Origin: Ostreococcus lucimarinus
Lineage: Eukaryota
Strand: one strand, 5' to 3'
Length of the DNA: 64,000 nucleotides
Assembly (NCBI GenBank): GCA_000092065.1
Contig: CP000582.1
Part shown: in pieces, positions 1-64,000 of the stretch
Position numbering within the stretch: position 1 is the stretch's first letter
Layout: every line of letters starts with the position of its first letter
The notes under the pieces: model-generated
What the model saw: only the letters and a program-made list of their open reading frames with translations
Database searches by the model: none
What the model was told of the DNA's origin: nothing
Position numbers and translations under genes: made by a program

Positions 1-283
1 ATCAGCAACCAGCCGGCTGACTTGAAGCTGTCGCGTTCGCAGTCAAAGAGATTACGCAAGAAGAAGCGAGATAATTCATAGTAATTTGTTGTTCACATGA
101 AATAACATACAATATTCGAATCGATATACGTACAGCTATAGATACTAGTCAACGCTGAGTTGGGCTATTTCGCCTTCCAATGACTTCAAAGTAGCCAACT
201 GCCTGTTCAAAATGTTGACATATTTGCTCAAAGAGCTAGAGCCTTCTTGATCACTCTGTGTAATAGGTATGAACCATGTGCTG

Positions 284-859
284 TTACCTGTGGGATAGTT
301 CACGTACCGTTTTTTCATCGAACATGCTGCTCACGTCTTGAATTTTTTCACAGACGTCCTTCAGTTGAGCGCTCATGCTTTCTGCAAAACAAAATAGTCG
401 GTCGTTGCGATCCAGTTGCACCGCACCCGGTCCGTGTCTGCATGACTTTTTAACCATCATATAATACACGTTCATCGGTACAAACCTGACTAATTCATGT
501 GTATCTTCTTCAATTTTGGCGAGCGCCACCTCGAGGTCACTCTGATAGTTCTCAAGTGTCTCAAGCTGAAATTTTAACCGATATTGTGCAGCAGAAAGAC
601 CGCATAGATCCGTCTGCGTATGTTCGCGTAAATTCACAATAGTTTGAACATGTTTACATACTTGGATCGAGTTAATAGACTTCCTTTGCCTTGATAGCGT
701 CGTGTCGAGCGAGTTTAGCACTCGTGTCTGTCTGGAAAACGTTTCCTGTGTTTGAAGTGTAAGATTTTCCGAGAGGCAGGGAGTGAGTGCACTCACATTT
801 GTGGCTGCTAAGCCAGACTGCCAGCCGCGGATTAAATCTTCGGTTCCTCGTGTCATCAA
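284..859 (-). CDS. coiled-coil protein of unknown function (probable extra 3' exon at ~150-250 after a short intron)
   Basis: 191-aa ORF with heptad-like coiled-coil composition; no family motif recognised; minus-strand reading continues after a short gap with ...SKYVNILNRQLATLKSLEGEIAQLSVD-stop. Confidence 0.3.
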   Translation of the reverse strand: MMTRGTEDLIRGWQSGLAATNVSALTPCLSENLTLQTQETFSRQTRVLNSLDTTLSRQRKSINSIQVCKHVQTIVNLREHTQTDLCGLSAAQYRLKFQLETLENYQSDLEVALAKIEEDTHELVRFVPMNVYYMMVKKSCRHGPGAVQLDRNDRLFCFAESMSAQLKDVCEKIQDVSSMFDEKTVRELSHR

Positions 860-1890
860 CGTCGTACTATGCGCCGTCGACTGGTTGCTTCGACGTTCAC
901 TTTCGCGGGTTGTGCTGTGATTTTGGTTTCTTAACTTAATAAAGAAAAAGAACTATTATTGGTTTAAGTATGACAACACACGCGTGCCCCAAAGAATCTT
1001 CAAAGATTTGGATTTGGGTTGCGGTTATCGCGATAAACGTTGGACACCGTTCGAAGCGCGTCACTGTCGCGTCGTTTTACGAGATCCAACTTAAGTGAAC
1101 ATGTCCGTTCACACGTCACTTAAAGTCATTGCCCTGCCGAAGGTTCACGCTCGCAGTGTTCGCAAGCAAGGTGCGAGAAGCGCATTATCTTACTTGATCG
1201 CGACTTGCATCCGTTCGCGATCGTTCTTCGTTTCTTTTCCTTCAGCGGCTTTACGCTCGACCGTTGCTCGTTACAAGGAGCGCCGAACATTTTCTATGAG
1301 TAACCTTTACCCTCGCCACAGCGTCTTACGTACCGACTGACTCGTATACTTCTCGAACACCGACAGGCAAGACCTTCGCGGTATCCGCGAAAGCGTCCTC
1401 AACCTCCGAAACCGTATTCAACTTCGAGAAGTATGTCCATTAAGTTGAGCTCTGTAGAAATCACATGACATCGTATGCGTAGGGTGGAGAAGGTTAAATC
1501 AAAGGCCAGCGCCGCTATGTCTGCCGCAGTTATCACGTCTATGACTTCTCCTTTGTTGGCTGAAGCCTCCGTGACGCCATCTTTGAAGAATACGTTGCTC
1601 TCCGTTGTCGCAGGTGGTGTCGTACTTGGGGCTATCGCCGCGGCTGTCATAGGGGTCTCTTCCTTTGACAAAGTCTCACGCAAATAAGCTCTGAAGAGCC
1701 AAGTCAAATGAAGAGGCGACTAGAGTTTATGAGGTATCGCTAACAAGTGTGCGATTATGGCAAGTTGAAGAAGATCGTGTATATGCGCAATAGTTAAATA
1801 CTTGACATACTCTAACCTCACTTAATTCTCACACCGAACCTCGCGCTAAGTGATCCGTGCCCGTCGATTTTTAATTAAAGACTAATCAAT

Positions 1891-2892
1891 ATGGAGTGCG
1901 TCGCGGTCAACTATGTACTTATATCTGAGTACCCAAGTTCCACAGGCCCAGTTTGCTCATACAGATCGAGTATCCGATTTCCTATAAGCTCAGAGATTTC
2001 TGGGTCAACATTCACGGCTTCCCACCATTTCTTCGGCAGTTCGAACTTGGAGCTCAGAAATTTGGTAGCTGTTTGAACTCAGAGAAAGTTCTGATTTCAA
2101 GCGCACGCAACTTACCTAAGTAGACGACTGCTTCAGCTATATGGTTTGCACTATACTCAAGGCATAGTGATGTTCGTAGACTTGCGCATTCGTCAGAAAT
2201 GTTATAATGTCGCGCGCAGATTTCTCGTACCTATCGTTAGCGAAATTCCAAGAAACTTGCGCAAGCGTTTTTGTTGACTCTTCCTCTATTAAACCAGCCT
2301 GACTCATCCTTTTAATTACTGAAAGTAAATGCTTATACGGATGTTCTACATTGAAATCAAAGCCAAGGCGATGCAGAAGTACACGTTCAGCTCTGAGAAT
2401 TGTCTCCTTCAGCTCAACATGAAGTTCCTGTCGCCGTTTAAGGGTGATTGTTACGAGCAAAATGAACATAATACCTGCTGCGAACTTTCTAGACGCGTGG
2501 GGTCGCTTGCTTTACGCTGTAATAAGTGGGACGTACGAGCAAGGTCATTGAGAGGTTTCGGGGTTTCTTCCACCTTTCCGGCAAGAAAAAGACACGCAGT
2601 GGCCATGACCTGCAAAGCTATCAACTCGAGCATGTTTCGGTTTTTTGGTTCCTTACCGCCGTCTCAAACTGTTGTGCATTTTGACTATCGAGCTCAAAAA
2701 AACGATGACAGAACACTGCCGCGGTCGCAATAGTGAGCTGGGGCCTGTCGCAGTCTGTTCTTTAGGAAAACTCGAACTGTACTACTTCATATGCTTACAC
2801 TTTTAGCTTCATGCCCGCTTCTTTGAGAAAATCGCAGTAACGCCATCTTCGCTCAGTGCTGGCATCCTTAGCTGTGCGAATTGAGCTTGACA
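1891..2892 (-). CDS. cyclin K/T-like transcription cyclin, multi-exon
   Basis: cyclin-box motifs LTIATAAVFCHRFF, ATACLFLAGKVEETPKPL, ERVLLHRLGFDFNVEHPYKHLL, LAQVSWNFANDR across at least 4 exons; 47-nt GT..AG intron at ~2610-2656 (minus strand) joins ...QQFETA to VMATACLF in frame. Confidence 0.6.
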
Positions 2893-3699
2893 TGGTCAGT
2901 AATGTGGGTGTTGAGCACGCGGCGGGAGCGCAGGGACTCACGTTTGTTTGTGACTGGTGGCGGTGCCGTACTTTCTTCGACTAACTCAATATACAACCAA
3001 CAAATAGAGCTATTAGCGTGCACGATTCGGGCAGCATTGCTCATGGTAATAATGTCTGCACGTGCAAGTTGCGCATCTGGCACGTACAGAAAGCCCGTGT
3101 CCGTCTGGAGCCCAGAACCGCCAGAGCAAGGTAGACGTAGGCTCGGACCGCCGACACGCCGGTCGATCGTTCCATGGACGATCTCATTGTCGTTCGTTGC
3201 AATAGAGACGTGAGCAAGTCATCACTTATCTCGCATGTCACACGGACGAGTTCTGCGTATTTTGAGACAGACGGCGTCGAGCGCGGGGAAAGGTCTCTCG
3301 GGGACCCTGGAGCTCTCGCTGATTCTGAGGTCTGGGTGCTCACGGACAACGGCCAGATGTTGAAAGTTGCGGACGTTAATCAAGTCCTACCGGTCAAACT
3401 CATTGAAACGGCGAGTGGGTACGTCGTGTATTCGCTTTTACTGTATGGTCTTGCCTACTCACGACCCCAGGGAACGTACCAGGACTGAGTGCGAGCTAAG
3501 TGAAGAGAACGTGGCGCCGGTGGAGGTAAGCTGATTTAAAACACGAATGTCCCTCAAATCATTGGAAATATAGATGGACGTGCTGCGCTTAGCTACTTGC
3601 AGCGCGACAAGTGCCACCGTCCAAACGGAATACGTGGCAGAGCTGCTGTGAGACTGGCCAAGATTTGCCTATCCCTGTTAGCATTGGAGTACCAAGCTA

Positions 3700-3775
3700 G
3701 TAGCGTATGTATGTATGTATGTATGTATGTATGTATGCATGTATGTAGGCGTGTATGCATGTGTGTTATCGGTGT
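3700..3775. repeat. (GTAT)n/(ATGT)n microsatellite
   Basis: gtatgtatgtatgtatgtatgtatgtatgcatgtatgtaggcgtgtatgcatgtgtg seen directly. Confidence 0.9.
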
Positions 3776-4541
3776 GAATCTATGTACGCGCATCGTTTAA
3801 TAGACCGTTGCACGTCGTATTTGTAATTTGTAACTAAGGTATCCACGTGTACTAGTAGTTCTAGACACCTCAAAGAGCTAATGCAGCTCTCTGGCTGTTT
3901 TAGTTGGTGCTATCAAAAATTGCGCATAGTAAGCGCGAACATTCGCCTTGTGTTTGAAGCCGCTGTTGTGTTGCTTTCGGACCGTTGCCGAGTCGTGTGT
4001 CAGGTGGGCGTTGCAGTAGTCTGAAGCGGAATATTGTTGAGGTATGTTGTACTTTTACCAACAGCGAGAAATGTGCGTACCGCAGTAATACCGTGCCATG
4101 CTGCGCCGTGTGTTCGCTCTAGTAACGAGCCTCCTGTTTCCACTTCGGAATGTGGAGTTATCCGAGCTCTTCTAGTCTTAACTCGCGTTACTCCTGCACT
4201 CCAGAACTGCAGAAGCAATGTGCCGCGCGCTCGCCCTCGCACGAGTCTCGGAATGAAGTTCTGACTCAGAACTTCTGAGTTAGCCGATTTCCGCTATCGG
4301 ATTCCTGGGTCATTACGGCCCGTAATTACGGGGAAGAATCGTATAATGTTTGTTTTATCCCATATTTGATTGAGCAAGCCAGCCTTAGCTCAGTACTTAG
4401 AACGTGCACAGTAAGTTCCAGTCCAGCTTCTAGAAGTTTGAGCTTGATCTTACAGAGCTTGATTAGCAACACACTCCGTAGAATGTCGGTGAAATAACAG
4501 CGCTATAGTATAGTAGTGATAATATGAACATGATAATATTA

Positions 4542-4569
4542 TCATTGTTGATATTAATATCAACAATGA
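4542..4569. repeat. perfect 28-bp AT-rich palindrome tcattgttgatattaatatcaacaatga
   Basis: sequence equals its own reverse complement; lies in the 3' intergenic region just downstream of the transporter gene. Confidence 0.85.
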
Positions 4570-4756
4570 GTTGCGCCACGATTAAGCGTCTTGAATAAAA
4601 CGTACTCGGGACTTCTTCTCAGCTTGCATAAGGCCTTTCTCTTGGCGATACGATGAACATAATGTATAAGTTATTTCTTTATTTCGTTGTACAGAGTGAT
4701 ATACGCTACAGATGCGACACTATGGTCATATACTGAATACGAGCGATTATTTCAGG

Positions 4757-6307
4757 CTATTCCCGCTGAAGATAGCTCTTCGCGTTGATGAGCGGGGCAA
4801 GCAGACAAATTCCGACAAACGTGGCGGTGAGAAGCGCAGCGAAAAATGCGTCCCATCCGTACTGTTGCACAAGAAGAGAAAGTGGAACGCCCGCGTTGGC
4901 TGCTCCTAGATATGCAATCCACCCAAGGAATCCCTCACTCGCACCAACGGAGCGACGACCAACAATTTCGGCCCCACACAGTCCTACTAGCATTTGCGGA
5001 CCGTACAGGAAGAACCCAATCATAAAAACTATGAGAGCTTGAGTGACGGGCCAACCAGCAGGAACCATCTTGAATGCAAGTAAAGAAGCCGCAACGCCAA
5101 TAAGATATACCATCACGACTCGAATACGATTACCGACGGCTCCTCTCGTTGATTTCGCAATCAAAGAGTCACTGATCCTTCCAGCTATCAGACTACCAAG
5201 CAAACCACCAAGTTCGAGGCCAGATACTCGGACGGCCGCCGCGCCTGCGTCGATCACACCCTTTTCTTTGATAAGATAAAATACTGACCAAGAAGTGATG
5301 CCCTGACGAACGACATAGACACAAAAGTATGTGAAAGCAAGCCCCCAGATGAAAGGGTTGGAGAGAACATTATGAAGAAGATTGTTCAAAAGGCTCGGTT
5401 GTTTCGAAATGTCGGCAGCATCAGCCTTAAGTCCGCCGGCAATGCTGACGTCTATCTCGACTGGTTCGAAACCTTTATCTTCTGGAGAATCTTTCAGCGT
5501 CGAGACGATGATCACACCAACAACGACAGCTATGCAGCCAGGAGCCCACAGACCCCAGTTCCAACCAAACGTACGAGCAGCAGTTCCAGCTAAGATGGGC
5601 GCCATAAAACCTCCAAGATTATGGGCAATGTTCCACATTCCCCAGTATGTTCCACGCTCGCTAGCAGCGAACCAAGAAGTCAAAATTTTCGCACAGCTTG
5701 GCGCACCGAACCCCTGCAAGATTCCATTCATCGCCCAGAGGACACAAAAGAAAGGAAGTGTCGAGCTCGCACCAAACGCAATATTTACAAGGCCAGTCGC
5801 AATCAAACCTCCGCCAAGCATTAGACTTGGCGATAACATATCACCCACCACACCGCTGACGAACTTACTGCAGCCATAACAAAGTGGAAAGATAGAGGTG
5901 ATAACACCAATAGAAGTTATATCAAGATGTAAAGACGGAGAAGCCACCATAGCTGGAGCAGTGAACGTCAAACTGTTGCGGGTCAAGTAGTAGCACGAGT
6001 AACCGAACAAAATGCTGAAAAACACGGAAAGGCGTGTTCTTAGAAACAGACTGTCGTATGTCCTCTTTGGCTCGGAAGTAGTTGCTGAGAAACCACAAAC
6101 TGTCGACGGACGGTGCAACTTGCTTCGACAATTGCGTATATGCCGCTTCTGGGGCGTAAAGTCACGTCGCACTGCGCATTTAATCCAAGTTACACGCTTC
6201 GGACCTCTCCGAGTTGTTCGAGATCCCACGGGGCTCCCCGGCTGGGCGTTGAGTGTTGTGACGTGTGCCGAGACGAACATTTCTGCTACGAAAGCAAAGC
6301 AAACCAA
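4757..6307 (-). CDS. MFS organophosphate:Pi antiporter (GlpT/UhpC/SLC37 glycerol-3-phosphate or sugar-phosphate transporter family)
   Basis: 516-aa ORF; 12-TM profile; matches to GlpT family e.g. FGYSCYYLTRNSLTFTAPAMV, GMWNIAHNLGGFMAPILAG; N-terminal ~95 aa may be UTR read-through or targeting extension. Confidence 0.75.
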   Translation of the reverse strand: MVCFAFVAEMFVSAHVTTLNAQPGSPVGSRTTRRGPKRVTWIKCAVRRDFTPQKRHIRNCRSKLHRPSTVCGFSATTSEPKRTYDSLFLRTRLSVFFSILFGYSCYYLTRNSLTFTAPAMVASPSLHLDITSIGVITSIFPLCYGCSKFVSGVVGDMLSPSLMLGGGLIATGLVNIAFGASSTLPFFCVLWAMNGILQGFGAPSCAKILTSWFAASERGTYWGMWNIAHNLGGFMAPILAGTAARTFGWNWGLWAPGCIAVVVGVIIVSTLKDSPEDKGFEPVEIDVSIAGGLKADAADISKQPSLLNNLLHNVLSNPFIWGLAFTYFCVYVVRQGITSWSVFYLIKEKGVIDAGAAAVRVSGLELGGLLGSLIAGRISDSLIAKSTRGAVGNRIRVVMVYLIGVAASLLAFKMVPAGWPVTQALIVFMIGFFLYGPQMLVGLCGAEIVGRRSVGASEGFLGWIAYLGAANAGVPLSLLVQQYGWDAFFAALLTATFVGICLLAPLINAKSYLQRE

Positions 6308-6579
6308 AAGAACACGGATTCAACTTCGAATCGCCTTGCTCTATGTCGCGCGACTCTCTGAAAACGGCCGTTACGTCTTCTTCTTCAACCACGCACGGGA
6401 CGTTCGGTACACGTGCAAAATCATATCAATGATGGCATATTGTAAGACAATTCTCGCGAAATAGTCCACGTCGAGTGGGTTTTCTGCCCGGCGAAAAACC
6501 GAAAAGTTGTGCGTCGGTGCGCACGTACCTCAGACGTCGCCTCAAGTACGCGGAACAGGCAACGCCCACAGAGCCTGTC

Positions 6580-7401
6580 ATGAAAGCTACTGGTTTTGAT
6601 TTTCACCGCGTGCACGCCCCCGCGCAAGATTTTCGCGCGAAAAAGACCGGTACAACGATATGTGGAGTAGTCTTCGCGGGGGGTGTTGTTCTCGGTGCAG
6701 ATACTCGGTCTACGAACGGGGAAACAGTAGCCGACAAAAACTGCGAAAAAATACATCACATAGCACCAAACATATATTGCTGCGGAGCTGGAACAGCTGC
6801 CGACACGGAGTCTCTGACTGGTAAGAGTTGCAACGTTGTCGGATTGTTCGAGATTTTGTTCCAATATTTATTCTAATAACACCACATAGGCCTGATTTCT
6901 TCCAATCTTCACCTTCACAGGGCACAAACAAATCGACAGAATTTGGTGAAGACTGCGCTCACTATGCTTAAAAGCTATCTTTTCCGTTATCAAGGTCATG
7001 TTGGCGCCGCACTAGTTTTAGGCGGCGTCGACAAGGAAGGCGCACATCTTTACACTGTCTACCCCCACGGATCCTCTGATGCTTTACCGTTCGCAGCGAT
7101 GGGTAGCGGATCTTTAGCGGCCATTGCAACGCTCGAGACGGGCTATAGTGAGGTTTTGAAGTTGGATGATGCAAAGGAGTTAGTGACACGAGCTATTCTA
7201 GCAGGTGTACTAAATGATCTCGGTTCCGGCTCTTCCGTCGACTTGTGTATAATTTCAAGGAGTGGGACAGAATATGTTAGGAATTATCGGTCTGATATGC
7301 ATCGAACTTTCAAATTGACACCTGGTTACGAATTCGGAGACGAATGCAACGAAGTGAACAGCGCCAACTTTGATACTGCCACTCGTATATTACGCAACTA
7401 A
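6580..7401 (+). CDS. PSMB7: proteasome subunit beta type-7 (beta2), 2 exons
   Basis: exon 1 ...[57 protein letters not shown]; exon 2 ...[32 protein letters not shown]...; both exons in the same frame separated by stop codons, so the intron length must be a multiple of 3; best fit is a donor at ~6846 and acceptor at ~6920 (75 nt). Confidence 0.8.
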
Positions 7402-7510
7402 AGAACCCAGTTGAGTGAGATATGTCACGTTTATGTCGCTAAATATTTCCTTTAAGCTTGTAAAAAGTTTTCGTCTTGTTGACTTGAATGTTCGACTTGA
7501 AAAGCCCATC

Positions 7511-9469
7511 CTATTGACTTCGCTCTTTCACAAGGGCATCCACAACGCTAGGATCAGCTAGAGTGGATATGTCACCCAACGAGTCTTCTTCTCGAGACGC
7601 TATTTTCCTCAAGATGCGTCTCATAATTTTACCACTACGCGTTTTTGGTAATCCTGGCGCCCATTGAATAGTATCAGGTGCTGCGAACGGACCGATAACA
7701 GTCCTCACACAGTTCACCAGAGCTTTCTTCGTTGCCTCCGTGAGAACACAACCTTCGCGCAACGTTACAAAAGCGTATATCGACTGACCCTTGATAGCGT
7801 GATCAATTCCCACTACAGCGGCTTCAGTACACTCCTGATGGGTGACTAATGCCGACTCGACCTCCGCAGTGCCGATACGATGACCAGACACGTTGATGAC
7901 ATCGTCAACACGTCCGGTAATCCAATAATACCCATCCGAGTCACGCTTGGCCCCATCGCCTGAAAAGTAGTACCCTTTAAACATGGAGAAGTACGCTTCT
8001 TCGTACCTTTTATGATCCGAAAAAAGTGTTCGAAACATGGATGGCCACGGTTTCTTGAAACACAAATACCCTTCGGCCTCTCCTGTCAATTCTTCTCCGG
8101 CATCGTTCAGTAATACTGGTTGAACACCAAAGAACGGGAGAGTCGCCGAACCTGGCTTCTGCTCTATCGCAAAAGGCAGTGGAGTGATCATATGCCCACC
8201 GGTTTCCGTTTGCCACCAGGTGTCTACGATCGGACAGCGTCCACCTCCGACGATCTCGGAGTACCACTGCCATGCTTCGGGGTTAATCGGTTCTCCGACT
8301 GTACCCAATATTTTCAGCGACAGCCTTTGGTGTTTGAGAACAAAGTCGTTACCGTATCGCTGCAACGCTCTTATCGCAGTTGGCGCTGTGTAGAATGCTT
8401 TCACATTATATTTGTCCACGATTTGCCAACACCGACCAGCATCTGGATGTGTCGGTACTCCCTCAAAGACAACTGAAGCGGCACCGTTTAGAAGTGGTCC
8501 ATATGTCACGTACGTATGACCTGTTATCCAGCCACAATCTGCAGTGCACCAAAATATATCACCTTGTTGCATGTTGAAAACAGAGGCGCATGTAGCTCCA
8601 GCATAAACCATGTACCCTCCGGTAGTATGGAGGACGCCCTTCGGGGAGCCTGTAGAACCAGACGTGTACAACATGAAGAGTGGATGCTCCGCATCAACCC
8701 ATTCTGTTGTGCACTCCATGGATTGTGCATGTACTGCTTGCTGCCAATGTTCATCACGACTAGTTGTGAGAAAGCCCTCCACGTCAAGCCTCTCGTTCAT
8801 GAAACATAAGCAGTGTTCAATTTTATGACCCTTTTCGGCACTGGAATCACATGCTTCGTCGACGACAGCTTTTAAATTTATGTGTTTCGAACCTCTCATC
8901 ACAGCTGAACATGTTAACACCACTTTCGCCGCCGATCCCAGAAGACGCTGCGCTAACGCCTCAGAAGAAAATCCTGCAAACACAACAGAGTGGACAGCCC
9001 CGATGCGGGCACAAGCAAGCATCGCAATAGGAAGTTCCATAATCATAGGTAAGTACAGTACAACAGCATCACCCTTAGCAACTCCGACCGATTTCAGCCA
9101 GTTTGCCAGCCGATTGACATCTGCTTGGAGCTCACTGTACGTTTTTGTCCCTTCTTCACCGACGTCATTACCTTCCCAGATTAACGCGACCTGCTCTCCA
9201 CAGCCCCTTTCAATATTTCGTTCGATGCAATTCCACGCAATGTTGGTCTTCCCGCCGGCAAACCATGAGACGTCAACTTTTCCGACGTCGGTATTGAAGT
9301 TGAAGGCGCTCACACTATCAGACCAGTCAGCACTCCAGACGAAGTCCTTGGCCAGTTTGGACCAAAATTTCTCTGGCTCAGTAACGGATTCGCGATAGAG
9401 CTCGTCGTACTGGCCACGACTCGAACAGTTTCGAAGTGTATCCATCACGTTCACGGTCGAAAGATTCAC
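7511..9469 (-). CDS. ACS: acetyl-CoA synthetase (acetate-CoA ligase), single exon
   Basis: 652-aa ORF with N-terminal ACS domain (PEKFWSKLAKDF...WF.GGKTNIAWNCIERN), AMP-binding motif YTSGSTGSPKGV, C-terminal PKTRSGKIMRRILRKIA. Confidence 0.9.
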   Translation of the reverse strand: MNLSTVNVMDTLRNCSSRGQYDELYRESVTEPEKFWSKLAKDFVWSADWSDSVSAFNFNTDVGKVDVSWFAGGKTNIAWNCIERNIERGCGEQVALIWEGNDVGEEGTKTYSELQADVNRLANWLKSVGVAKGDAVVLYLPMIMELPIAMLACARIGAVHSVVFAGFSSEALAQRLLGSAAKVVLTCSAVMRGSKHINLKAVVDEACDSSAEKGHKIEHCLCFMNERLDVEGFLTTSRDEHWQQAVHAQSMECTTEWVDAEHPLFMLYTSGSTGSPKGVLHTTGGYMVYAGATCASVFNMQQGDIFWCTADCGWITGHTYVTYGPLLNGAASVVFEGVPTHPDAGRCWQIVDKYNVKAFYTAPTAIRALQRYGNDFVLKHQRLSLKILGTVGEPINPEAWQWYSEIVGGGRCPIVDTWWQTETGGHMITPLPFAIEQKPGSATLPFFGVQPVLLNDAGEELTGEAEGYLCFKKPWPSMFRTLFSDHKRYEEAYFSMFKGYYFSGDGAKRDSDGYYWITGRVDDVINVSGHRIGTAEVESALVTHQECTEAAVVGIDHAIKGQSIYAFVTLREGCVLTEATKKALVNCVRTVIGPFAAPDTIQWAPGLPKTRSGKIMRRILRKIASREEDSLGDISTLADPSVVDALVKERSQ

Positions 9470-54768: not shown

Positions 54769-54863
54769 CCGCTCGCGTTCGCATCGCCGCGCTTCGCGCG
54801 CGCTCGTCTCTGCGTTACAACGCGCCTATAGTCCTATAGTCCTAGTGGTCCTATCCGTCCCGC

Positions 54864-55184: not shown

Positions 55185-55195
55185 TCCGCGACGCG

Positions 55196-55363: not shown

Positions 55364-55395
55364 ACGCGTCGCGGACGCGTGCGTGAATGAAAGAA

Positions 55396-55417
55396 TGGAT
55401 GGATGGATGGATGAATG
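55396..55417. repeat. (GGAT)n short microsatellite
   Basis: tggatggatggatggatgaatg seen directly. Confidence 0.8.
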
Positions 55418-55618
55418 TTTCGGACGCGCGAGGACGACGAGGGCGAGGACGAGGGCGCGCGACGCGACGGACGCGCGCGCTCGAAAACGATCGCGGCGGT
55501 GGCGTCGCGCGCGGCGCGCGAAGACGGCGCGCGGATCGCCGAGGTGGGGACGCTCGTTTGAAATGATGAATAAAAGTTTGAAATTTTGAAATTACAGCGC
55601 GGCGAGACGACGCCGCGC

Positions 55619-56449: not shown

Positions 56450-56736
56450 CGTCAGCGCGTCGCGGTGTGCGGGACAGCGCGCTTTCGCCACTCATCGACG
56501 CGCCGCGACGCGCGCGAGCGTCGCGCGGCACCGCGACCGCGTTCGAGCGTCGCGGCATCGCGTCGCGGAACGGCGCGCGCTCGAGCGCGGCGTCGCGCTC
56601 GAACGCGCGCGCGCGAAGGGCGAAAGATTTGATTTCGATTTGAAATCATCGATTCGCGAACGCGAAGTAAAATCGAACGCGGAGCGCGCGCGCGCGCTCG
56701 AGACCGCGCGCGATCGCGGCGACGGACGCGCGCGAG

Positions 56737-58854
56737 ATGTCCGCGTGGCCGGACCCGCGCGCGGGGCTGCTGCGCGCGAACGCGACGGCGCGGGGGGGTG
56801 ATGAGGCGGCGCGAGGACGCGACGGCGCGCGCGGCGGCGGCGCGGCGGCGTTGACGCTGGATGATTTGATCCTGCGACGCGCGGGCGACGCGAGCGCGGG
56901 CGCGAGCGCGAACGTCGTCGACGCGGGCGCGCGCGGGACGGGCGCGAGCGGGACGGGCGCGAGCGGGACGCTGTTTTCGAGAGCGCGCGCGCCGGTGGTG
57001 GTGACGGGGTGGGCGAATCCGCACGCGGGCGGCGACGAAGCGCGGGACGGCGCGCGCGGTCGCGACGGAGTCGATCGCGCGTTTTCGGACGCGCGCGATC
57101 GCCGTGGCGCGGGGAGACAGCCGTTGGAGCTCGCGGGACGGCGAAACGCGGTGGGCGTGGTGCGAGACGCGGTGGATTACAACGCGGGATATTTGTCGCC
57201 GGACGAAGTAAACGCCGATCTCGACGGGCCACCATCGCCCGTGCGAGGGTTCGCGCAGCGGTTGATGTCGCTCGATGCGTCGCCGACGCCGCGAGGGAAG
57301 CACTCGCGGAAGCGTGGGACGACGAATCGAAGCGCGGAACCGGATGGGGCGTACGAGTACGAGCAAAGGCGAAAGCGCGCGCGCCGCGCGGCGATGAAGG
57401 AGGCGGAGGCGCTCGCGGCGGCTGCACGGCGGATGCCCGTGAGTCCAGGAAGCGATTCGGGCGCGCCAGGATCGGCGTCGCGATCGGGCCGCGCGTTGCG
57501 CGCGCCTGGAGCGTTCTGGACGGGTGCGGGTGTCTCGAGAGATGAGCGCTCCTGGCGGCAGCCGGCGTCGCCGCCGAAACGCGGACGAGGCAGACCGCCG
57601 AAGAACGCGAAACGATACTCACCGCCGTCGTCGGAGGACGAATACGAAGACTTCGGCGGTGCGGAGGAAGGTGAGCGAGGCTGGAGCGAGGACAAAGACG
57701 CGCACGCGCGAGGTGGTCGTGCGCCCGCGAACGCGGCGCGCGCGCTGAATAGCATTAGAGGACACGCAGCGCCGACTCGGCGACAACCGCAGGCGCCGCG
57801 CGAGCGCGGCACGCGCAAGGGTAAGCCCGGACCGAAGCCCGGTGTTGCGGCAGCGAAGAAGGCTGCCATGATCGCCGCTGGGATTCCGATCCCCGTGCTT
57901 CCACCGGGCGTCAAGCGCGGTCGCGGTCGCCCGCCGAAGAGCATGCTTATCATCCCGGACGGCCCTCCGAACGCAAACCTTCCGGACACCGTCATTCGTT
58001 CCATAGCCGAGGTCGACCCAAGAGTGATCGAAAAGGTGAAACCCGAACGTTTTCGCGCGGTCTCTACGACGAATTCAGCGCTGAGATCTTCGTACGTGGC
58101 GCCGCCGCTTCAAGAAGAGCGAACGGCGTGCATCGCGTGCGGCCGCGTCGACGGCGAAGACAGAATGCTCCTGTGCGATGGATGCGATAAGGGCTATCAC
58201 ACGCACTGTTTGGTCCCTCGACTAGACAAAGTCCCAGAGAATGAATGGTTTTGTTACGAATGCGTGACGCAAAATCGACCGAAGACAGCCGCGGCGGAGG
58301 CGTTTGAACGCCGCCAAGCCTCCAAGGCGCGGTTCGCGCCGGAGACGACGTACGACGAATGTCAGCGCGTGAGCGACAAATTGAAGCTCAACGGCGAACG
58401 CAAGCTCAAACCCGGACCGAAACCAGGGTCGAAAATGAAAAAGAATCACCGCCGCGACGACGAGTTCGATGACGACAGATACGCCGCGGCGCCGTCGACG
58501 GAGAAGCGCCCGGTCGGTCGACCGAAAAAGGACCCCAACGCTTGGTCGGACGAGCAATTAGAGGCGTTACAAAACGCTCAAGTGCGCGTGGATCTCGGTC
58601 GTAAAAACTTTTGGACCGAAGTCGCGAGTTACGTTCCTGGGAAAACGGCACAGCAGTGCAAAGAACAAGTGTACGCTGGCTTGAACATCGGCGCCGACGA
58701 CGCCGACGACGCAGACCGATCCGATACCGACGAAGACGTCGAAGATACCCCACACAACCAGCATCAACAACGAACGTTTCGAACGCCCACCAAGCCTAAC
58801 TCATCGCGCGAAAACGCAGAGCGCTGGCGCAATCGCGCGCCCCAGCGCTCGTAG
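56737..58854 (+). CDS. chromatin protein with two AT-hooks, a PHD finger and a Myb/SANT-like domain
   Basis: AT-hooks PKRGRGRPPKNAKR and VKRGRGRPPKSM; PHD CIACGRVDGEDRMLLCDGCDKGYHTHCLVPRLDKVPENEWFCYEC; SANT/Myb-like WSDEQLEALQNAQVRVDLGRKNFWTEVASYVPGKTAQQCKEQVY. Confidence 0.6.
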   Translation: MSAWPDPRAGLLRANATARGGDEAARGRDGARGGGAAALTLDDLILRRAGDASAGASANVVDAGARGTGASGTGASGTLFSRARAPVVVTGWANPHAGGDEARDGARGRDGVDRAFSDARDRRGAGRQPLELAGRRNAVGVVRDAVDYNAGYLSPDEVNADLDGPPSPVRGFAQRLMSLDASPTPRGKHSRKRGTTNRSAEPDGAYEYEQRRKRARRAAMKEAEALAAAARRMPVSPGSDSGAPGSASRSGRALRAPGAFWTGAGVSRDERSWRQPASPPKRGRGRPPKNAKRYSPPSSEDEYEDFGGAEEGERGWSEDKDAHARGGRAPANAARALNSIRGHAAPTRRQPQAPRERGTRKGKPGPKPGVAAAKKAAMIAAGIPIPVLPPGVKRGRGRPPKSMLIIPDGPPNANLPDTVIRSIAEVDPRVIEKVKPERFRAVSTTNSALRSSYVAPPLQEERTACIACGRVDGEDRMLLCDGCDKGYHTHCLVPRLDKVPENEWFCYECVTQNRPKTAAAEAFERRQASKARFAPETTYDECQRVSDKLKLNGERKLKPGPKPGSKMKKNHRRDDEFDDDRYAAAPSTEKRPVGRPKKDPNAWSDEQLEALQNAQVRVDLGRKNFWTEVASYVPGKTAQQCKEQVYAGLNIGADDADDADRSDTDEDVEDTPHNQHQQRTFRTPTKPNSSRENAERWRNRAPQRS

Positions 58855-58915
58855 TCCTGGTTGCAATTCACACCTCGACACGCCACACAACCCTGCGCGC
58901 GCCGACCCACCGCGA

Positions 58916-59152
58916 ATGCGCGACCGAACCTTCGGTGCGCTCGCCCTCGCCGTGCTCACCGCGCTCTTCGCGTACTACACCGTCTGGGCGCTCGTGACGC
59001 CGCTGATCGACGTCGGACACCCGGTGTTGAAACTGTTTCCCAGTCCAGAGCTCGCGGTGGCCATCCCAGCCTACCTCGGCGCGTGCGTCGTGTGCGCCTC
59101 AGCGTGCGTCGTTGGCGTGGCCATGATCACGCACAAGCCCAAGCGCGCGTGA
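58916..59152 (+). CDS. DPM2: dolichol-phosphate mannosyltransferase regulatory subunit DPM2
   Basis: 78 aa, two TM helices; ALAVLTALFAYYTVWALVTPLIDVGHPVLKLFPSPELAVAIPAYLG matches DPM2 (..FTYYTAWVILLPFID..H...KYF.PR.YAVAIP). Confidence 0.65.
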   Translation: MRDRTFGALALAVLTALFAYYTVWALVTPLIDVGHPVLKLFPSPELAVAIPAYLGACVVCASACVVGVAMITHKPKRA

Positions 59153-59170
59153 GCGGCGAAGCGCGCGGCG

Positions 59171-60829
59171 ATGGCGGCGCAGGCGAGGGCGTTGGAGTCC
59201 CAGGTGTGGCGCGAGCGGGACGAGGAACAGGACGACGACAAAGCATCGACGGCCGACGACCGGCGCGCGCAGGAAGAGGAGATGTCGATTCTCGTGAGTA
59301 TTTTCTGCGACTGCGCGAGAGGCGACGACGCGAACGCCGTGAGGGAGGCTTTGGCTTCGGGACGCGACGTCGGCGACGCGACTTCGAGCGGGCGGTTGTT
59401 TCGCGCAGAACTGGAGATCGACGTCGAGATCGACGGCGAAGCAGAGGTCTTGAACGGAGATTCCACGCATCTTGTTGCTGCTTTACCGCCGATATTTCTG
59501 GAATTCATCTTCCCGAGAAGGTATCCCTCGCGCGAGGCGCCGAAGTTCGTCATTCGTAGTGATTGGTTGTCGAACAGCCATTTGAGCGCGATGTGCGCGA
59601 GATTGGACGCCATATGGGAAGACCAGCGTCCAAACGGTGAGCCAATAGTGTATGAATGGACTCAATGGATAAAGAACGACGCGATGCGAGACGTATTGTT
59701 GAATGCGCAGGGCGCGCTCGACGTCTCAGCTCGAGGTCTTGGGTGGGCGGACGGCGAGTTTGAAGTCGACGCGAGAGCCGTCGTTACGGCTCGAGACGCG
59801 AATGAGGCGGTGTTTACGATTTTACGTGCAGACGCACATGCTAGACGACGAGCATTTCTGATCAGCTGCGATAATTCGTGCTCAATGTGCCTCGCGGATG
59901 ACATCAAAGGCGTCGACGTTCGACGAGTGTCGAGCGCCTGCGCGCACACGTATTGCGTCGAGTGCGTGACGCGCATGGCGCGCGTGCACGTGAGCGAAGG
60001 CTCTGTCTTACGCTTGGTCTGCCCGGAATGTTCGTGTGCGTTCGATCCTCATGTGCTGCGCGCCATTCTGAACCATGATGAGTATGAAAAGTATGAAGCC
60101 ACGCTGCTCGCGCGCACGCTCGACTCGATGGCGGATCTCGTGTACTGCCCTCGATGCGAGCATCCCGTTATTGAAGAAGAAGATCAAAATTTTGGGCGAT
60201 GTCCCGGTTGCTTCTTCGCTTTCTGCACGCTTTGCCGCGCGTCGTGGCACGCTGGGTCCGAGTGCCTCAACGCTGAGCAAAAGCTCGCGGTGCTCGAGGC
60301 GAGACGTCGCGGTGACTCGAAAATGTCCGAAGAAGCGTTGCGTCAGTACAAAGAACAAATCGCCGACGTATCCGCGGCCGCATACGTCGAACGGAACGGC
60401 CGCAAGTGCCCAGTGTGTGGTCAAGGGGTTGAGAAAAACGAAGGCTGCAACAAGATGACGTGCGCGTGCGGCGCCTACTTTTGTTGGAAGTGCGGTCAAA
60501 AGCTTGAAGGCGACGGGTATTCTCATTACCGAAACGTCAACGGCGAACCCGGCACGAGCACGTGTCAACTCTTCGACCTCGACGCCATCGAAGCGTGGGA
60601 GCGCGATATGGCCGCGCTTCGCGTCGACGGTCGCGCGCCTCGCGCGCCGAGAGCCGCCGACGTCATCTCCTGCATCCGCTGCAAGGCCCAAAACGTCGCC
60701 TTCGATCGAAACAACCACGTTCGATGTTGGGCCTGCAACTCTTCTTTTTGCGCCGCGTGCAGGCGCGTCGTTCTGAAGACGTCCGAGCACTACGCGCCGA
60801 GCGCCCCGTGCAAGCAGCACCGAAAGTGA
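59171..60829 (+). CDS. RBR-type E3 ubiquitin ligase with N-terminal RWD domain (RNF14/ARA54-like)
   Basis: RWD region ...FLEFIFPRRYPSREAPKFVIRSDWL...; RING1 CSMCLADDIKGVDVRRVSSACAHTYCVECV...CPEC; IBR YCPRCEHPVIEEE...CPGCFFAFCTLCRASWHAGSEC; RING2 CPVCGQGVEKNEGCNKMTCACGAYFCWKCG. Confidence 0.75.
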   Translation: MAAQARALESQVWRERDEEQDDDKASTADDRRAQEEEMSILVSIFCDCARGDDANAVREALASGRDVGDATSSGRLFRAELEIDVEIDGEAEVLNGDSTHLVAALPPIFLEFIFPRRYPSREAPKFVIRSDWLSNSHLSAMCARLDAIWEDQRPNGEPIVYEWTQWIKNDAMRDVLLNAQGALDVSARGLGWADGEFEVDARAVVTARDANEAVFTILRADAHARRRAFLISCDNSCSMCLADDIKGVDVRRVSSACAHTYCVECVTRMARVHVSEGSVLRLVCPECSCAFDPHVLRAILNHDEYEKYEATLLARTLDSMADLVYCPRCEHPVIEEEDQNFGRCPGCFFAFCTLCRASWHAGSECLNAEQKLAVLEARRRGDSKMSEEALRQYKEQIADVSAAAYVERNGRKCPVCGQGVEKNEGCNKMTCACGAYFCWKCGQKLEGDGYSHYRNVNGEPGTSTCQLFDLDAIEAWERDMAALRVDGRAPRAPRAADVISCIRCKAQNVAFDRNNHVRCWACNSSFCAACRRVVLKTSEHYAPSAPCKQHRK

Positions 60830-61019
60830 AGCGAAAGCTTGAAAACTGAACGAAAGCTCTCACAGCGCCCTCGCGTTCCCGCACTCGCGCGCGCTCGATG
60901 TGATGGGCGCCGAGCGCCCCGTGCAAGCAGCACCGAAAGTGAAGCCAAAGCTTGAAAACTGAACGAAAGCTCTCACAGCGCCCTCGCGTTCTCGCACTCG
61001 CGCGCGCTCGATGTGATGG
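60795..61019. repeat. 2 x ~112-bp tandem duplication (2 mismatches) spanning the E3-ligase stop codon, the whole intergenic spacer and the first bases of ureF
   Basis: cgccgagcgccccgtgcaagcagcaccgaaagtgaagc[g/c]aaagcttgaaaactgaacgaaagctctcacagcgccctcgcgttc[c/t]cgcactcgcgcgcgctcgatgtgatgg occurs twice back to back. Confidence 0.85.
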
Positions 61020-61843
61020 AAGCGTTCGTTTTAATCGACCCGTTGCTACCGACGGGCGCGTTCGCGCACTCGCTCGGGCTCGAGCCCGCGCGAATCGCGC
61101 GCGCGGTCGGGACACTGGACGAGACGTCTCGCGAAGCCTCGCGCGCGGTCGAGACGTACGCGCGCGAGTGCGCGCAGAGCGCGATCGACGGTCAACTTCC
61201 GTTCGCGCTCGCCGCGCGCGCGCTCGCGGTGCGAGCGAACGAAAAACGCGCGCGCGAGGGAGACGAGGACGGGACGACGCGCGCGTGGCGAGCGGCGAAC
61301 GCGGAGTGCGCCGCGCTCTGCGCGTCGAACGCCGTGAATCGACGCGCGAGCGCGGGCACGGGCGCGGCTTTACTACGAGCGTCGATAGTGGCATTCGGCG
61401 AGGACAGAAGTTGGTACTTGAGGGCGATTAAAAGAACGCTGCGACGACCGCCGCCGCTCGGCTTGGGCGAGGCGCACCACGCGTGCGTCTTCGGCGCGGT
61501 GAGCGCGATCGCGAATTTAGACGCCGAGGCGTGCGCGCGCGCGTACGTGTACTGCATCATGCGCGATGTGTGCTCGGCGGCGACGCGATTGAACGCGAGC
61601 GGACCTTTGGAAACCGTCGCGGCGTTGCGGCGTTGCGTCGAAGACGCCGAGGCGGCGTGCGCCGTCGCCGTCGCCGAGTTCAACGCCTCCACCGTCCGCG
61701 CGTCGACGATCGACGACGACGACGACGATGACGACGACGCCATCATGAATTATCTCCGTCGCGCGCCGGCGACGTCGGCACCGATATACGAAGCCGTCCA
61801 GGGCGCGCACGACCACGCGCGCGCGCGCCTCTTCAACTCCTAG
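61016..61843 (+). CDS. ureF: urease accessory protein UreF
   Basis: N-terminal LIDPLLPTGAFAHSLGLE (UreF signature ..LP.G.F.(H/Y)S.GLE) and C-terminal HDHARARLFNS (..H.RLF.S); contains a poly-Asp run (GAC)n. Confidence 0.7.
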   Translation: MEAFVLIDPLLPTGAFAHSLGLEPARIARAVGTLDETSREASRAVETYARECAQSAIDGQLPFALAARALAVRANEKRAREGDEDGTTRAWRAANAECAALCASNAVNRRASAGTGAALLRASIVAFGEDRSWYLRAIKRTLRRPPPLGLGEAHHACVFGAVSAIANLDAEACARAYVYCIMRDVCSAATRLNASGPLETVAALRRCVEDAEAACAVAVAEFNASTVRASTIDDDDDDDDDAIMNYLRRAPATSAPIYEAVQGAHDHARARLFNS

Positions 61844-61924
61844 CCTTCGCGTCGCGCGCACCTCTTCGACGGCCCGCGCGCGCGCGTCCCGCTGTATTTT
61901 CATTCATAGTTGTATTTTCATCCT

Positions 61925-62135
61925 CTGTACGTCACTCGCGCGCATTCGCGAACGCGCGAATTCGCGCGTAAAAAGGTCCCTTCGCGTCCGGAGGTCGGCC
62001 GCCCTTTCGGAAATCTCGTCAATCTCGACGCCCACTGTTTACCCATATCAGAAAATATGAGCCCGACGTTTCGAAACGTCGTTTCGGAACGTCGTTCCGA
62101 AACGACGTTTCGAAACGACGTTCCGGAACGACGGC
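61925..62135. promoter_or_regulatory. DUR3 upstream region with two CG-palindrome clusters: cgcgcgaattcgcgcg/ttcgcgaa (61935-61958) and a ~70-bp dyad-symmetric array of CGTTTCGAAACG and CGTTCCGGAACG units (62064-62133), embedded in the only AT-rich stretch of compartment B
   Basis: 62064-62120 is its own reverse complement except for three gtcg/gacg core swaps; lies 280-350 bp upstream of the DUR3 ATG. Confidence 0.4.
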
Positions 62136-62415
62136 GCGTGCATCGCCCGAGCCGACGCCGGCGCGGCAGTGCGAGACGCGCGAGTCGACTCCAAAGGTGC
62201 GACCGCGAGCGCTCTTCGCGCCATCTTCGTCACCGTCCATCGCGCGCGCGCGTTGTCTTCGTTCGAGCGCGCGGCGACGCGGCGACGATGGAGGCGAATC
62301 ACGATGGCGGCGCAAGTGACGACGCGATGACGTCGCGATGATTGCGCGATGCGGGGACTGACGATGACGCGCTTCGATCGGGCGACGCAGACACGCACAC
62401 TTGACATCAGCACAC

Positions 62416-64000
62416 ATGTCTTGCGAACAGTATGAAACCCTGGTCGGGAGCTCGTGCGTTCGCGACACGAGCTTCTTCGGCGGGAAAGCCGTGCTCCCCG
62501 AAGGCGCGGGCTACGGTATCGTCATCGGTTTCGGTTTGTTCTTCTCCCTCGCCACGGCGATCATCATGGGTCTCGATAAGCGTTACGGTGGGACGAACAT
62601 CTCGTCTGAATACTTCAACACCGCCGGTCGTAACGTGAAGACGGGTTTGACGGCGTCCGTCATCGTGTCCCAGTGGACGTGGGCGGCGACGCTCTTGCAA
62701 TCGTCCAACGTCGCGTACCAATATGGTGTCTCCGGACCGTTCTGGTACGCGTCCGGTGCGACGATTCAAGTTTTGCTCTTCGGTATGCTTGCCATTCAGG
62801 TGAAGCGATACGCGCCTAACGCGCACACTATTTGCGAAATCATCGACGCTCGATGGGGCGCGAACGTGCAAAAGGTCTTCATCTTCTTCTGCTTCTTGAC
62901 CAACGTCATTGTGTCTTCGATGCTCGTGCTCGGTGGTGCCGCCACGGTGAACGCGCTCACGGGTATGAACACCACCGCCGCTGGTTTTTTGATCCCGATC
63001 GGTGTCATTGCGTACACTATGGCTGGTGGCTTGAAGGCGACCTTCTTGGCGTCGTACATCCACACCGCCATCATCTTCGCTATTCTCATCACCTTCATCT
63101 ACATCGTGTACGCGGCCGACACCAAGCACGGTCTCGGCTCTCCGAGCAAAGTGTACGATCTCCTCCAGAGCGTCGCTCAGCGCAGTCCGACTTCAACCGA
63201 ATGCGTCGCTCGCCTTGCCGCCGACCAAAACTGCGGTCCGGTGGCCAAAAACCAAAAGGGCTCTTACTTGACCATGCTCTCTGAGGGTGGTGTCATCTTC
63301 GGTATCATCAACATCGTTGGTAACTTCGGTACCGTTTTCGTCGACCAATCGTACTGGCAATCCGCCATCGCGGCCAAGCCGAGCTCCTCCACCAAGGGTT
63401 ACCTCCTCGGCGGTCTCGTTTGGTTCACCATCCCCTTCGCCCTCGCCACCGCCATGGGTCTCGCCACCGTCGCTCTCGACTTGCCGGTCACCTCTGACGA
63501 AGCTGGTAAGGGTCTCGTGCCGCCCGCCATCGCCACCCACTTGATGGGTAAGGGTGGTGCCGCTGCGATCACCATCATGCTCTTCATGGCCATCGTGTCC
63601 ACGGGCTCCGCCGAGCAAATTGCCGTCTCCTCCTTGTTTGCGTACGATGTGTACCGCAAGTACATCAAACCGAACGCCACGGGTGAAGACATCCTTCGCG
63701 TGTCTCGTTACGGTGTCGTCGCCTTCGGTATTTTCATGGGTATCCTCTCCTTGATCCTCGACGAGCTTGGATTGTCCCTCGGTTTCGTGTACCTCATGAT
63801 GGGCATCTTCATCGGCTCCGCCGTCATGCCCATCTCTTTCGTTTTGACTTGGGACAAGGCGAACGCCAAGGGTGCCGTCATCGGCGCCATCAGCGGCCAA
63901 GTTCTTGGCTTGGTCACGTGGATCGTCACCGCTCAAGGCCTGTACAAGGCGGTCACCATCAAGACGCTCGGCGAAAACTACCCGATGCTCGCCGGTAACA
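62416..64000 (+). CDS. DUR3: urea active transporter DUR3 (sodium:solute symporter family), 5' partial, runs off the window end
   Basis: near-identity to DUR3: [111 protein letters not shown]...; not in the ORF track because no stop is reached. Confidence 0.8.

Follow-up and report, generated by a model that had tools for sequence, protein, structure and literature searches.

The window, a 64,000-bp stretch of Ostreococcus lucimarinus DNA, falls into two compartments that differ in base composition and gene structure. The low-GC compartment (1..37253; 47.2% GC) contains genes for an MFS protein, acetyl-CoA synthetase (ACS), casein kinase II beta (CK2beta), frataxin, a TGS1-like protein, an SF1 helicase, a WD40 protein, a Rab11-type GTPase, RRM proteins, Cbf5/TruB, WDR5, TRM13, L35, KAS and RFC1. 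The high-GC flank (37254..64000; 63.8% GC) begins with a thymidine kinase (TK) gene and continues with Nipped-B/SCC2, BAH, NUDIX, HCAR-type, Cupin_5, PHD, DPM2 and RING/IBR genes, up to the start of a urease cluster. The genes seen in the window are ordinary housekeeping genes. An earlier note on this DNA had placed plastid genes in both halves, and we confirmed KAS on the left and the HCAR-type protein on the right; cpSRP43 was not found in the pieces scanned.

Several genes of the low-GC compartment are split by introns. In the gene for the Rab11-type GTPase (23438..24311, plus strand), the Ras domain is spread over three ORF pieces, and there are at least five exons and at least four small introns of ~50–60 bp, such as those at 23779–23828 (50 bp) and 24126–24184 (59 bp); these exon limits are approximate, since the pieces were joined by eye to a Rab11 consensus. 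The TGS1-type methyltransferase and SF1 helicase genes are also interrupted, whereas in the right half the long ORFs are unbroken and correspond to annotated proteins, for example the PHD protein (705 aa) and the RING protein (552 aa). As far as these examples go, the left half is intron-rich and the right half intron-poor, as first described. Introns of the BOC1 type are numerous, small (40–65 bp), AT-rich and unlike those of the rest of the genome, and the small introns in our examples agree with this. No obvious transposable element was seen across the 37-kb low-GC part, and a recent preprint finds that transposable element enrichment of BOC1 is weak in O. lucimarinus.

The boundary between the compartments is abrupt. 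A two-segment fit to the 64-kb window puts the maximum-likelihood GC change point at 37,252, with an LLR of 867; when 1-kb blocks were shuffled 200 times, the LLR averaged 72 and never exceeded 291, so the composition boundary that had been noticed near 37.2 kb is real. Over the whole window the step at ~37,253 amounts to 16.6 percentage points. In successive 100-bp windows GC is 0.47 (37154–37253), 0.66 (37254–37353) and 0.86 (37354–37453), meaning that the rise from 0.47 to 0.86 is complete within 200 bp at the breakpoint. The left half is even in composition (44–50% GC in 2-kb windows), in keeping with the ~47% given previously, but the range of 65–72% given for the right half is too narrow, because GC there varies between 55 and 75% in 2-kb windows (52–81% in 300-bp windows). 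For GC3, 'near 50%' is a fair description of the left-half ORFs (0.39–0.50), but 'near 90%' applies on the right, where the range is 0.66–0.88, only to TK, BAH, HCAR and UreF. High GC is not maintained evenly along the flank: Nipped-B has a GC3 of 0.66. Across the step, GC3 shifts much more than GC1 or GC2. Benites 2021 recognized BOC1, the candidate mating-type locus, as a contiguous block with GC ~9–17 points under its flank and a sharp boundary, and the window contains a GC drop of this kind.

Six ORF translations, taken from both halves, are equal to or cluster with proteins of O. lucimarinus CCE9901 that are all annotated on one 895,087-bp record. Going by the literature, this record would be chromosome 2, the big outlier chromosome. 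The low-GC BOC1 block on CCE9901 chromosome 2 is the candidate MT- locus, with limits that were set by the drop in GC (Moreau 2012, Blanc-Mathieu 2017, Leconte 2020, Benites 2021), and the low-GC compartment of the window is the distal 37 kb of this block, from the candidate MT- haplotype. Environmental contigs L001–L004 are 99.98% identical to it. A 360,398-bp MT- environmental contig, whose low GC over its full length is extrapolated from the last ~17 kb that were read, stops at the boundary and extends ~325 kb past the left end of the window, so the block is probably not the short and isolated one that had been considered as a possible objection.

A GC step could also be produced by an assembly chimera or by contamination, if two organisms or chromosomes had been misjoined at ~37.25 kb. 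Several MT- environmental contigs do end at the boundary (L001/L007 at 37254, L008 at 37253 and L012 at 37230), and the sequence to the right of the junction is repetitive with 80–86% GC, the sort of sequence at which assemblies tend to fail. However, the same sequence runs through the junction at 99.7–100% identity in seven independent contigs (L005, L006, L009, L010, L011, L013 and L014), whose samples, projects and assemblers differ, and therefore the junction is not a chimera. Both halves' proteins are also annotated on the one finished CCE9901 record. We give a misjoin virtually no credence, and contamination is as improbable as the earlier note had supposed. The contig ends at the boundary can be attributed to forking of the assembly graph there, since two haplotypes share the flank.

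The second haplotype is found in at least ten metagenome contigs, which share the high-GC flank with the window and then change, at 37,253|37,254, to a different low-GC sequence. Ten contigs (L021–L030) align to the window from 37254 rightward, with identity starting at CGCGAACTGCGCC, and together with L040–L042, which were added by gene order, they share 37254–48237 at 99.66–99.83%. In contigs tied to either haplotype the flank is 99.66–99.86% identical to the window, so it is common to both. To the left of the breakpoint, the alternative haplotype has 45.8–46.4% GC and carries ACS, CK2beta, TFIIB and MCM7, and its ACS start codon is 42 bp from the breakpoint. The low-GC sides of the window and of L021–L030 do not align with each other except in two genes: ACS (67.9% nucleotide identity) and CK2beta (68.5%; 10969..11580, minus strand, in inverted relative orientation). 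The haplotype divergence that had been proposed as a check is therefore present, in the form of a second, unalignable low-GC haplotype that meets an over 99% identical flank at the same base. Some samples contain both haplotypes (3300032073, with L004 and L029; ERZ27251046, with L010 and L030).

ACS gives some indication of the age of the two haplotypes. The MT- gametolog in the window (7511..9445, minus strand; 644 aa, ABO94753.1), whose counterpart comes first among the genes of the alternative haplotype, is 80% identical in amino acid sequence to ACS of O. tauri RCC4221 and only 64% identical to the alternative O. lucimarinus copy. Conversely, the alternative ACS shares 78% identity with the O. 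tauri protein OUS41910.1, which is of the RCC1115 (M+) type, and 64–65% with the CCE9901 and RCC4221 proteins. In a neighbor-joining tree and identity matrix of ACS, the sequence from O. mediterraneus MMETSP0929, which was published as MT- (Benites 2021), sits in the window's clade. Gametologs of this one gene thus cluster by haplotype across species (OUS41910.1 versus CEG01033.1), which suggests that the alternative haplotype is ancient, trans-specific and of the MT+ type. It might instead belong to a cryptic other species or be a recent structural variant, since the contigs are metagenomic, the identity of their organism is inferred, and the group includes small indel variants (its ACS is called as either 645 or 656 aa). 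Against a different species, the alternative sequence is attached to a flank that is almost identical to the window and has shared polymorphisms with no fixed differences over 11 kb, whereas ACS proteins of other Ostreococcus species are only 74–80% identical. Against a recent variant, the two ACS copies have just 64% amino acid identity and group trans-specifically. Moreover, Leconte 2020 reports that every occurrence of O. lucimarinus comes with both MT gene sets. We therefore regard either origin as very improbable, and take the alternative sequence to be an ancient O. lucimarinus allele.

The flank and the block differ in their patterns of variation. Over ~11 kb of flank there are 11 polymorphisms shared between the two haplotype groups and 0 fixed differences, a comparison in which consensus flanks may mix molecules of both haplotypes and so mask linked differences. 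Among MT- haplotypes we counted 0.11 substitutions/kb inside the low-GC block and 1.05 in the flank, and among alternative haplotypes 0 and 0.17, respectively; metagenome contigs are population consensuses, so these values are lower bounds from which linkage disequilibrium and recombination rates are not derivable. Diversity in the block is thus about tenfold below that of the flank, or zero. The flank appears to be one gene pool that is exchanged freely between the haplotypes. These patterns lend indirect support to suppressed recombination within the block and free recombination beyond it.

The breakpoint (37253..37254) is exact to the base in all contigs examined. It lies in the divergent intergenic region between RFC1 (minus strand) and TK (plus strand), at 37071..37350, which probably serves as a promoter region in both directions. 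On the MT- side the block starts with the RFC1-like gene (35574..37070, minus strand), which is transcribed away from the boundary; its 498-aa product is identical to ABO94765.1 and has the Pfam domains AAA, AAA_lid_RFC1 and RFC1 but no BRCT domain. TK (37351..38238, plus strand) comes first among the genes of the flank that both haplotypes share. Its N-terminal extension is rich in Arg, Ala, Ser and Thr and is encoded by a (CG)n-rich, indel-prone tract (37367–37627) of up to 86% GC, in the region of which contig L006 carries a 219-bp gap. Two sites in the tract, 37421 and 37425, ~170 bp from the breakpoint, associate with haplotype. Exchange in the flank would reach to within ~170 bp of the edge, with diversity falling directly inside it, which makes this a good site for studying the limits of recombination suppression.

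Taken together, it is very probable that the window, on the big outlier chromosome of CCE9901, crosses one edge of BOC1, the published candidate mating-type locus, in its MT- haplotype, and that a second haplotype, of MT+ type, is joined to this flank at an identical nucleotide position. The identity with CCE9901, the published GC-drop boundary and the two haplotypes all support the earlier note's reading of the window as the edge of the Mamiellophyceae low-GC outlier block. In the proposed mechanism, which is taken from the literature, recombination would be suppressed between the two haplotypes. Without recombination, GC-biased gene conversion would no longer offset the mutation bias from GC to AT, and GC, above all GC3, would decay inside the block and stay high in the recombining flank. 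The step would be sharp because the limit of recombination is itself sharp, in the divergent promoter region beside the (CG)n-rich tract. Chromatin insulation or hyper-transcription, described in a preprint, may contribute to the GC difference or maintain it. It is possible, but rather doubtful, that the non-recombining limit is one fixed nucleotide common to both haplotypes, in a bidirectional promoter region beside a (CG)n-rich indel-prone tract, and that the edge is held in place by a stable element specific to the boundary, for example an insulator or a recombination hotspot associated with the promoter, with no gradual strata.

A role of BOC1 in mating is still only a candidate one, and mating has not been observed in Ostreococcus (Benites 2021, Leconte 2020). 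The block could have nothing to do with mating and instead be a non-recombining supergene kept in balance, or a chromatin compartment that is insulated; its two ancient haplotypes would then be maintained for another reason, for example a species barrier, an adaptation to viruses or ecology, or a hyper-transcribed TAD-like domain, and the GC difference would stem from suppressed recombination or from chromatin state. Two haplotypes, trans-specific ACS, reduced diversity and a sharp edge point to ancient suppressed recombination and balanced polymorphism, not to mating as such, and the gene content of the window is plain housekeeping; according to the preprint, BOC1 is insulated in a TAD-like manner, hypomethylated and highly expressed, and Moreau 2012 offered 'sex or species-barrier chromosome' as alternatives. 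However, an RWP-RK (MID-family) gene is published for MT- type haplotypes, including that of CCE9901 (Benites 2021), and exactly two haplotype classes are reported to be conserved across genera and to co-occur systematically in the ocean. No RWP-RK gene was noticed among the genes recognized in the 37-kb low-GC part. On this literature basis a mating-type system fits best, and we consider a function unrelated to mating unlikely.

The low-GC block and its interpretation as a candidate mating-type locus have already been published, and the window reveals no new kind of biology. Like BOC1 of Mamiellales generally (Moreau 2012; Palenik 2007 and Worden 2009 cited there), it has one lower-GC region, a higher-GC end, small introns and housekeeping genes; BOC1 shows little colinearity between species (Moreau 2012), and the window, which samples one edge, differs from it in nothing essential. 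The candidate locus on chromosome 2 of O. tauri, 650 kb long in M- (RCC4221) and 450 kb in M+ (RCC1115 and others) (Blanc-Mathieu 2017, Benites 2021), is likewise a low-GC block on an outlier chromosome, with haplotypes that do not align as nucleotide sequences, flanks over 99% identical, and housekeeping gametologs whose grouping across species follows the haplotype. ACS and CK2beta are adjacent both in O. tauri RCC1115 and in the alternative haplotype of O. lucimarinus, but in O. tauri RFC1 and the M+ ACS are interior genes, at ~49% GC, and not beside TK. Chlamydomonas and Volvox mating-type loci and the pseudoautosomal boundaries of sex chromosomes also have an abrupt transition from shared to haplotype-specific sequence, contrasts in composition and diversity, and gametolog pairs. 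Unlike these systems, Ostreococcus is haploid, its haplotypes are wholly reshuffled, their role in sex is putative, and in the available contigs the edge is sharp to a single base, with no gradient or strata to be seen on the flank side.

What is new is that two unrelated wild versions meet the shared flank at the same base. In the earlier publications covered here the O. lucimarinus MT+ haplotype was available as a transcriptome only, whereas the junction described here comes from metagenome contigs. Public metagenome assemblies hold both haplotypes on the same flank; this pins down one end of the locus to the base and makes the MT+ junction, and the near-zero diversity beside it, readable. 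The main evidence from genomes that these very abundant eukaryotic phytoplankton have cryptic sex is the outlier low-GC block of Mamiellales, and the two junctions are diagnostic for typing environmental samples or cultures: TK|RFC1 indicates MT- and TK|ACS the MT+ type.

Close to the edge, the window also contains a rearrangement specific to CCE9901 (33090..36811). The 3' part of RFC1 is present as an exact direct duplication of 1,430 bp (33090–34519 and 35382–36811, 100% identical), and the copies are separated by an 862-bp insert (34520–35381), whose source is the 5' part of a gene for the PP4 catalytic subunit in the high-GC compartment. Duplication and insert together create a chimeric ORF (33282–35141), and there is an 11-bp microhomology, GCAGAATTTGT, at the rearrangement junction. 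Capture of the edge had been offered as the explanation for the duplication, the chimeric gene and a truncated RFC1, but this is not supported, because the O. tauri RFC1 ortholog (553 aa) also has no BRCT domain and lies in the interior of its low-GC region, and because none of the 10 environmental contigs of the same haplotype has the duplication or the chimeric gene. Judged from the O. tauri protein, a short RFC1 is typical of the lineage. The recent PP4 insert (Metallophos/PP4c, 97–98% amino acid identity) keeps a GC3 of 0.74 inside the low-GC block.

A two-segment likelihood scan places a change point at position 37,252 of the window, with a GC content of 47.2% to its left and 63.8% to its right. 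The log-likelihood gain is 867, whereas 200 shuffles of 1-kb blocks averaged 72 and never exceeded 291; the compositional step at ~37,252 is real, as the earlier note had proposed from a GC change near 37.2 kb, and it is very sharp. Across positions 37154–37453, GC rises from 0.47 to 0.66 and then 0.86 in successive 100-bp windows. On a 2-kb scale the left half is even (44–50% GC) and the right half heterogeneous (55–75%). Among ORFs with Pfam support, GC3 is 0.39–0.50 on the left versus 0.66–0.88 on the right, with far smaller changes in GC1 and GC2, so the value near 90% that had been given for the right half is true of some genes but not as a general figure. The lowest right-hand value belongs to a Nipped-B/SCC2 cohesin-loader gene (38339–43762, minus strand), whose GC3 of 0.66 is far under that of its neighbors TK (thymidine kinase, 0.88) and BAH (0.85), although it is part of the flank that both haplotypes share. 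Indels near the 5' end of this gene (43670–43692 and 44059) alter the ORF calls among contigs, from 1889 aa to 1759 aa plus 113 or 123 aa.

The contrast in intron content that had been described between the halves is also borne out by examples. In a Rab11-type GTPase, three ORF pieces together make up the Ras domain; their frames can be stitched (approximately, by eye along the Rab11 consensus) to at least five exons with introns of ~50–60 bp. The domain of a TGS1-type methyltransferase in the left half is divided between two neighboring pieces. In an SF1 helicase (AAA_11/AAA_12), an in-frame stop codon at 16300–16302 separates two parts in the same frame (15541–16299 and 16303–17823). The stop presumably lies inside a small intron with a length that is a multiple of three; alternatively, the gene could be a pseudogene or be read through. 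The long unbroken ORFs of the right half are equal to the annotated proteins. Our Pfam scan was run on separate ORF pieces, and found no significant match in those from 1–4.7 kb and 9.7–13.8 kb and no cpSRP43 among the pieces scanned. No family reached its gathering score in an Rfam scan.

Each half of the window yields ORF translations that match proteins of O. lucimarinus CCE9901 exactly or fall into clusters with them, and these proteins are all encoded on one 895,087-bp record. The matches are TRM13 (ABO94513), an RFC1-like protein (ABO94765) and acetyl-CoA synthetase (ACS; ABO94753) on the left, and an HCAR-type protein (ABO94518), a PHD protein (ABO94520) and a RING protein (ABO94521) on the right. 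Seven environmental metagenome contigs (L005, L006, L009, L010, L011, L013 and L014), from different samples and assemblers, span position 37,253 at 99.7–100% identity, and in all of them RFC1 (35574–37070, minus strand) adjoins TK (37351–38238, plus strand). These contigs and the single record rule out a chimera or contamination; the earlier note had already thought contamination unlikely. Other contigs of the same (MT-) type, including one of 360,398 bp (Ga0494219_00130), terminate at 37,253 or 37,254 because a second haplotype joins the same flank at that base.

In published work, the low-GC BOC1 block of CCE9901 lies on chromosome 2 and is treated as the candidate locus for the MT- mating type; the same drop in GC sets its limits (Benites 2021; Leconte 2020). 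BOC1 is a single contiguous low-GC region with many 40–65-bp AT-rich introns and with housekeeping genes (Moreau 2012), and its chromatin boundaries are sharp according to a recent preprint. The phenomenon of a low-GC candidate mating-type block is already known; what we add is a base-exact boundary, an MT+-type junction from public metagenomes, and the pattern of diversity and flank sharing around the boundary.

By look-up with the flank-side thymidine kinase we found ten contigs of an alternative haplotype (L021–L030). They match the window at 99.66–99.83% identity over 37,254–48,237, and to the left of 37,254 they have another gene order (ACS, the casein kinase II beta gene CK2beta, TFIIB, MCM7) at 45.8–46.4% GC. 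From CGCGAACTGCGCC rightward the two haplotypes have the same sequence in every contig, and directly to its left they show no relation. Only two genes are recognizable between them (ACS, with 67.9% nucleotide identity, and CK2beta, with 68.5%), and these differ in position and relative orientation. An 82-kb scaffold (L015 + L041) runs from a urease cluster through the flank into the alternative haplotype, and both haplotypes occur together in metagenomes 3300032073 and ERZ27251046. The haplotype divergence that the earlier note had raised for checking is thus present, as a second low-GC haplotype joined to the same flank at the same base. Together with the CCE9901 identity and the published BOC1 block, the two haplotypes support the reading of the window as the edge of the candidate mating-type block. 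In the index of the collection, the alternative ACS has 223 blocks and two MT- genes have 130 and 79, a difference that fits the excess of MT+ published for Tara Oceans data (Leconte 2020). The window's HCAR variant was not on a 531,739-bp contig of the alternative haplotype, and the places listed for the alternative ACS did not include this contig.

The alternative ACS has 78% identity to O. tauri OUS41910.1 (we take the BE221DRAFT/OUS identifiers to be those of strain RCC1115, of M+ type), and just 64–65% to the ACS proteins of CCE9901 and O. tauri RCC4221 (CEG01033.1). The window ACS has 80% identity to the RCC4221 protein. A neighbor-joining tree of ACS contains two deep clades, each of which has a member from O. 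tauri and another of O. lucimarinus type, and the ACS of O. mediterraneus MMETSP0929, which was published as MT- (Benites 2021), groups in the window's clade. The divergence of the haplotypes therefore appears to be ancient and trans-specific. Since ACS groups by haplotype across species, the alternative haplotype is best read as the MT+ haplotype of O. lucimarinus, which in the published accounts that we found comes from a transcriptome only (Benites 2021; Leconte 2020). The two ACS lineages (7511–9445 in the window, 7817–9754 in L021) are no closer to each other, at 64% amino acid identity, than either is to land-plant ACS (60–64%); this distance between gametologs (counterpart genes on the two haplotypes) would reflect either an extremely old divergence or accelerated evolution in a non-recombining block.

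Sites in the flank were scored in the ten alternative-type contigs together with four long sequences of MT- type. The ~11 kb of flank contains 45 substitution sites, 11 of them shared and none fixed between the haplotype groups; association with haplotype is confined to sites 37,421 and 37,425, both within a CG tract that is prone to indels, ~170 bp away from the breakpoint. Going from the flank into the block, the alternative haplotype drops from 0.17 substitutions per kb to 0 (6.3 kb, 45 pairs) and the MT- haplotype from 1.05 to 0.11. These values are lower bounds because the contigs are consensus sequences, in which linkage in the flank may also be hidden. Although the ten alternative contigs come from different oceans and projects, there are no substitutions among them in the 6.3 kb left of the breakpoint, and their single difference is a 1-bp indel that moves the predicted start of ACS, giving 645 or 656 aa. 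Indirectly, these consensus contigs suggest that the flank has been exchanged between haplotypes, with no exchange inside the block.

The earlier note had looked to the edge to explain a truncated RFC1, a duplication and a chimeric gene. None of these can be attributed to it. The O. tauri RFC1 orthologue is likewise short (553 aa) and BRCT-less, and lies in the interior of its own low-GC region, which rules out shortening by the boundary; RFC1 relatives form a family of 475–608 aa. The duplication is a direct repeat of 1,430 bp from the 3' part of RFC1 (33090–34519 and 35382–36811, 100% identical). Between the copies is an 862-bp insert from the 5' part of a PP4 catalytic-subunit gene (PP4c), and duplication and insert form a chimeric Metallophos-RFC1 ORF (33282–35141). 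None of the ten environmental MT- contigs has either of them, which excludes them as features of the locus edge. Taken with an 11-bp microhomology at the junction (GCAGAATTTGT), this absence speaks for a recent rearrangement specific to CCE9901, and suggests, without proving it, a real strain-specific template switch rather than a misassembly. We found no edge genes conserved between species: TK has neither RFC1 nor the M+ ACS as a neighbor in O. tauri, whereas in O. lucimarinus both are at the edge beside it, one per haplotype. This fits published reports that colinearity is lacking.

The limit between haplotype-specific and shared sequence is exact to the base, and both haplotypes have their GC step there. 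This limit lies in a divergent intergenic region, 183 bp from the RFC1 start codon and with TK in the opposite direction; in the alternative haplotype, 42 bp separate it from the start codon of ACS. A promoter hotspot or an insulator might have a part in fixing the locus edge, but this is speculation. Mutation is biased from GC to AT, and recombining DNA stays GC-rich through GC-biased gene conversion (Benites 2021 and the RCC1115 genome literature). It would follow from this literature that where recombination ceases, gene conversion no longer offsets the mutation bias and GC decays. The PP4c fragment has kept a GC3 of 0.74 after its recent insertion on the low-GC side, so composition follows residence time in the compartment and not gene identity. 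Next to the breakpoint on the flank side comes the (CG)n-rich tract (37367–37627, up to 86% GC), which encodes an Arg/Ala/Ser/Thr-rich N-terminal extension of TK. It is indel-polymorphic, with a 219-bp in-frame gap in L006 that is possibly an assembly collapse.

Three independent MT- type contigs (L002, L003 and L004) have their ends no more than 21 bp apart (30883–30904) inside the beta-ketoacyl synthase gene KAS (30760–32136); a possible cause is tangling of the assembly graph by a conserved paralogue or gametolog. At the other end of the window (~61000–64000 and beyond), the urease cluster (UreF, two unknown ORFs, urease, UreG and UreD; ~8.5 kb) is present or absent in wild populations: the window and L015 have it, and in L016 the RING/IBR gene is followed directly by the 136-aa and 2OG-FeII genes.
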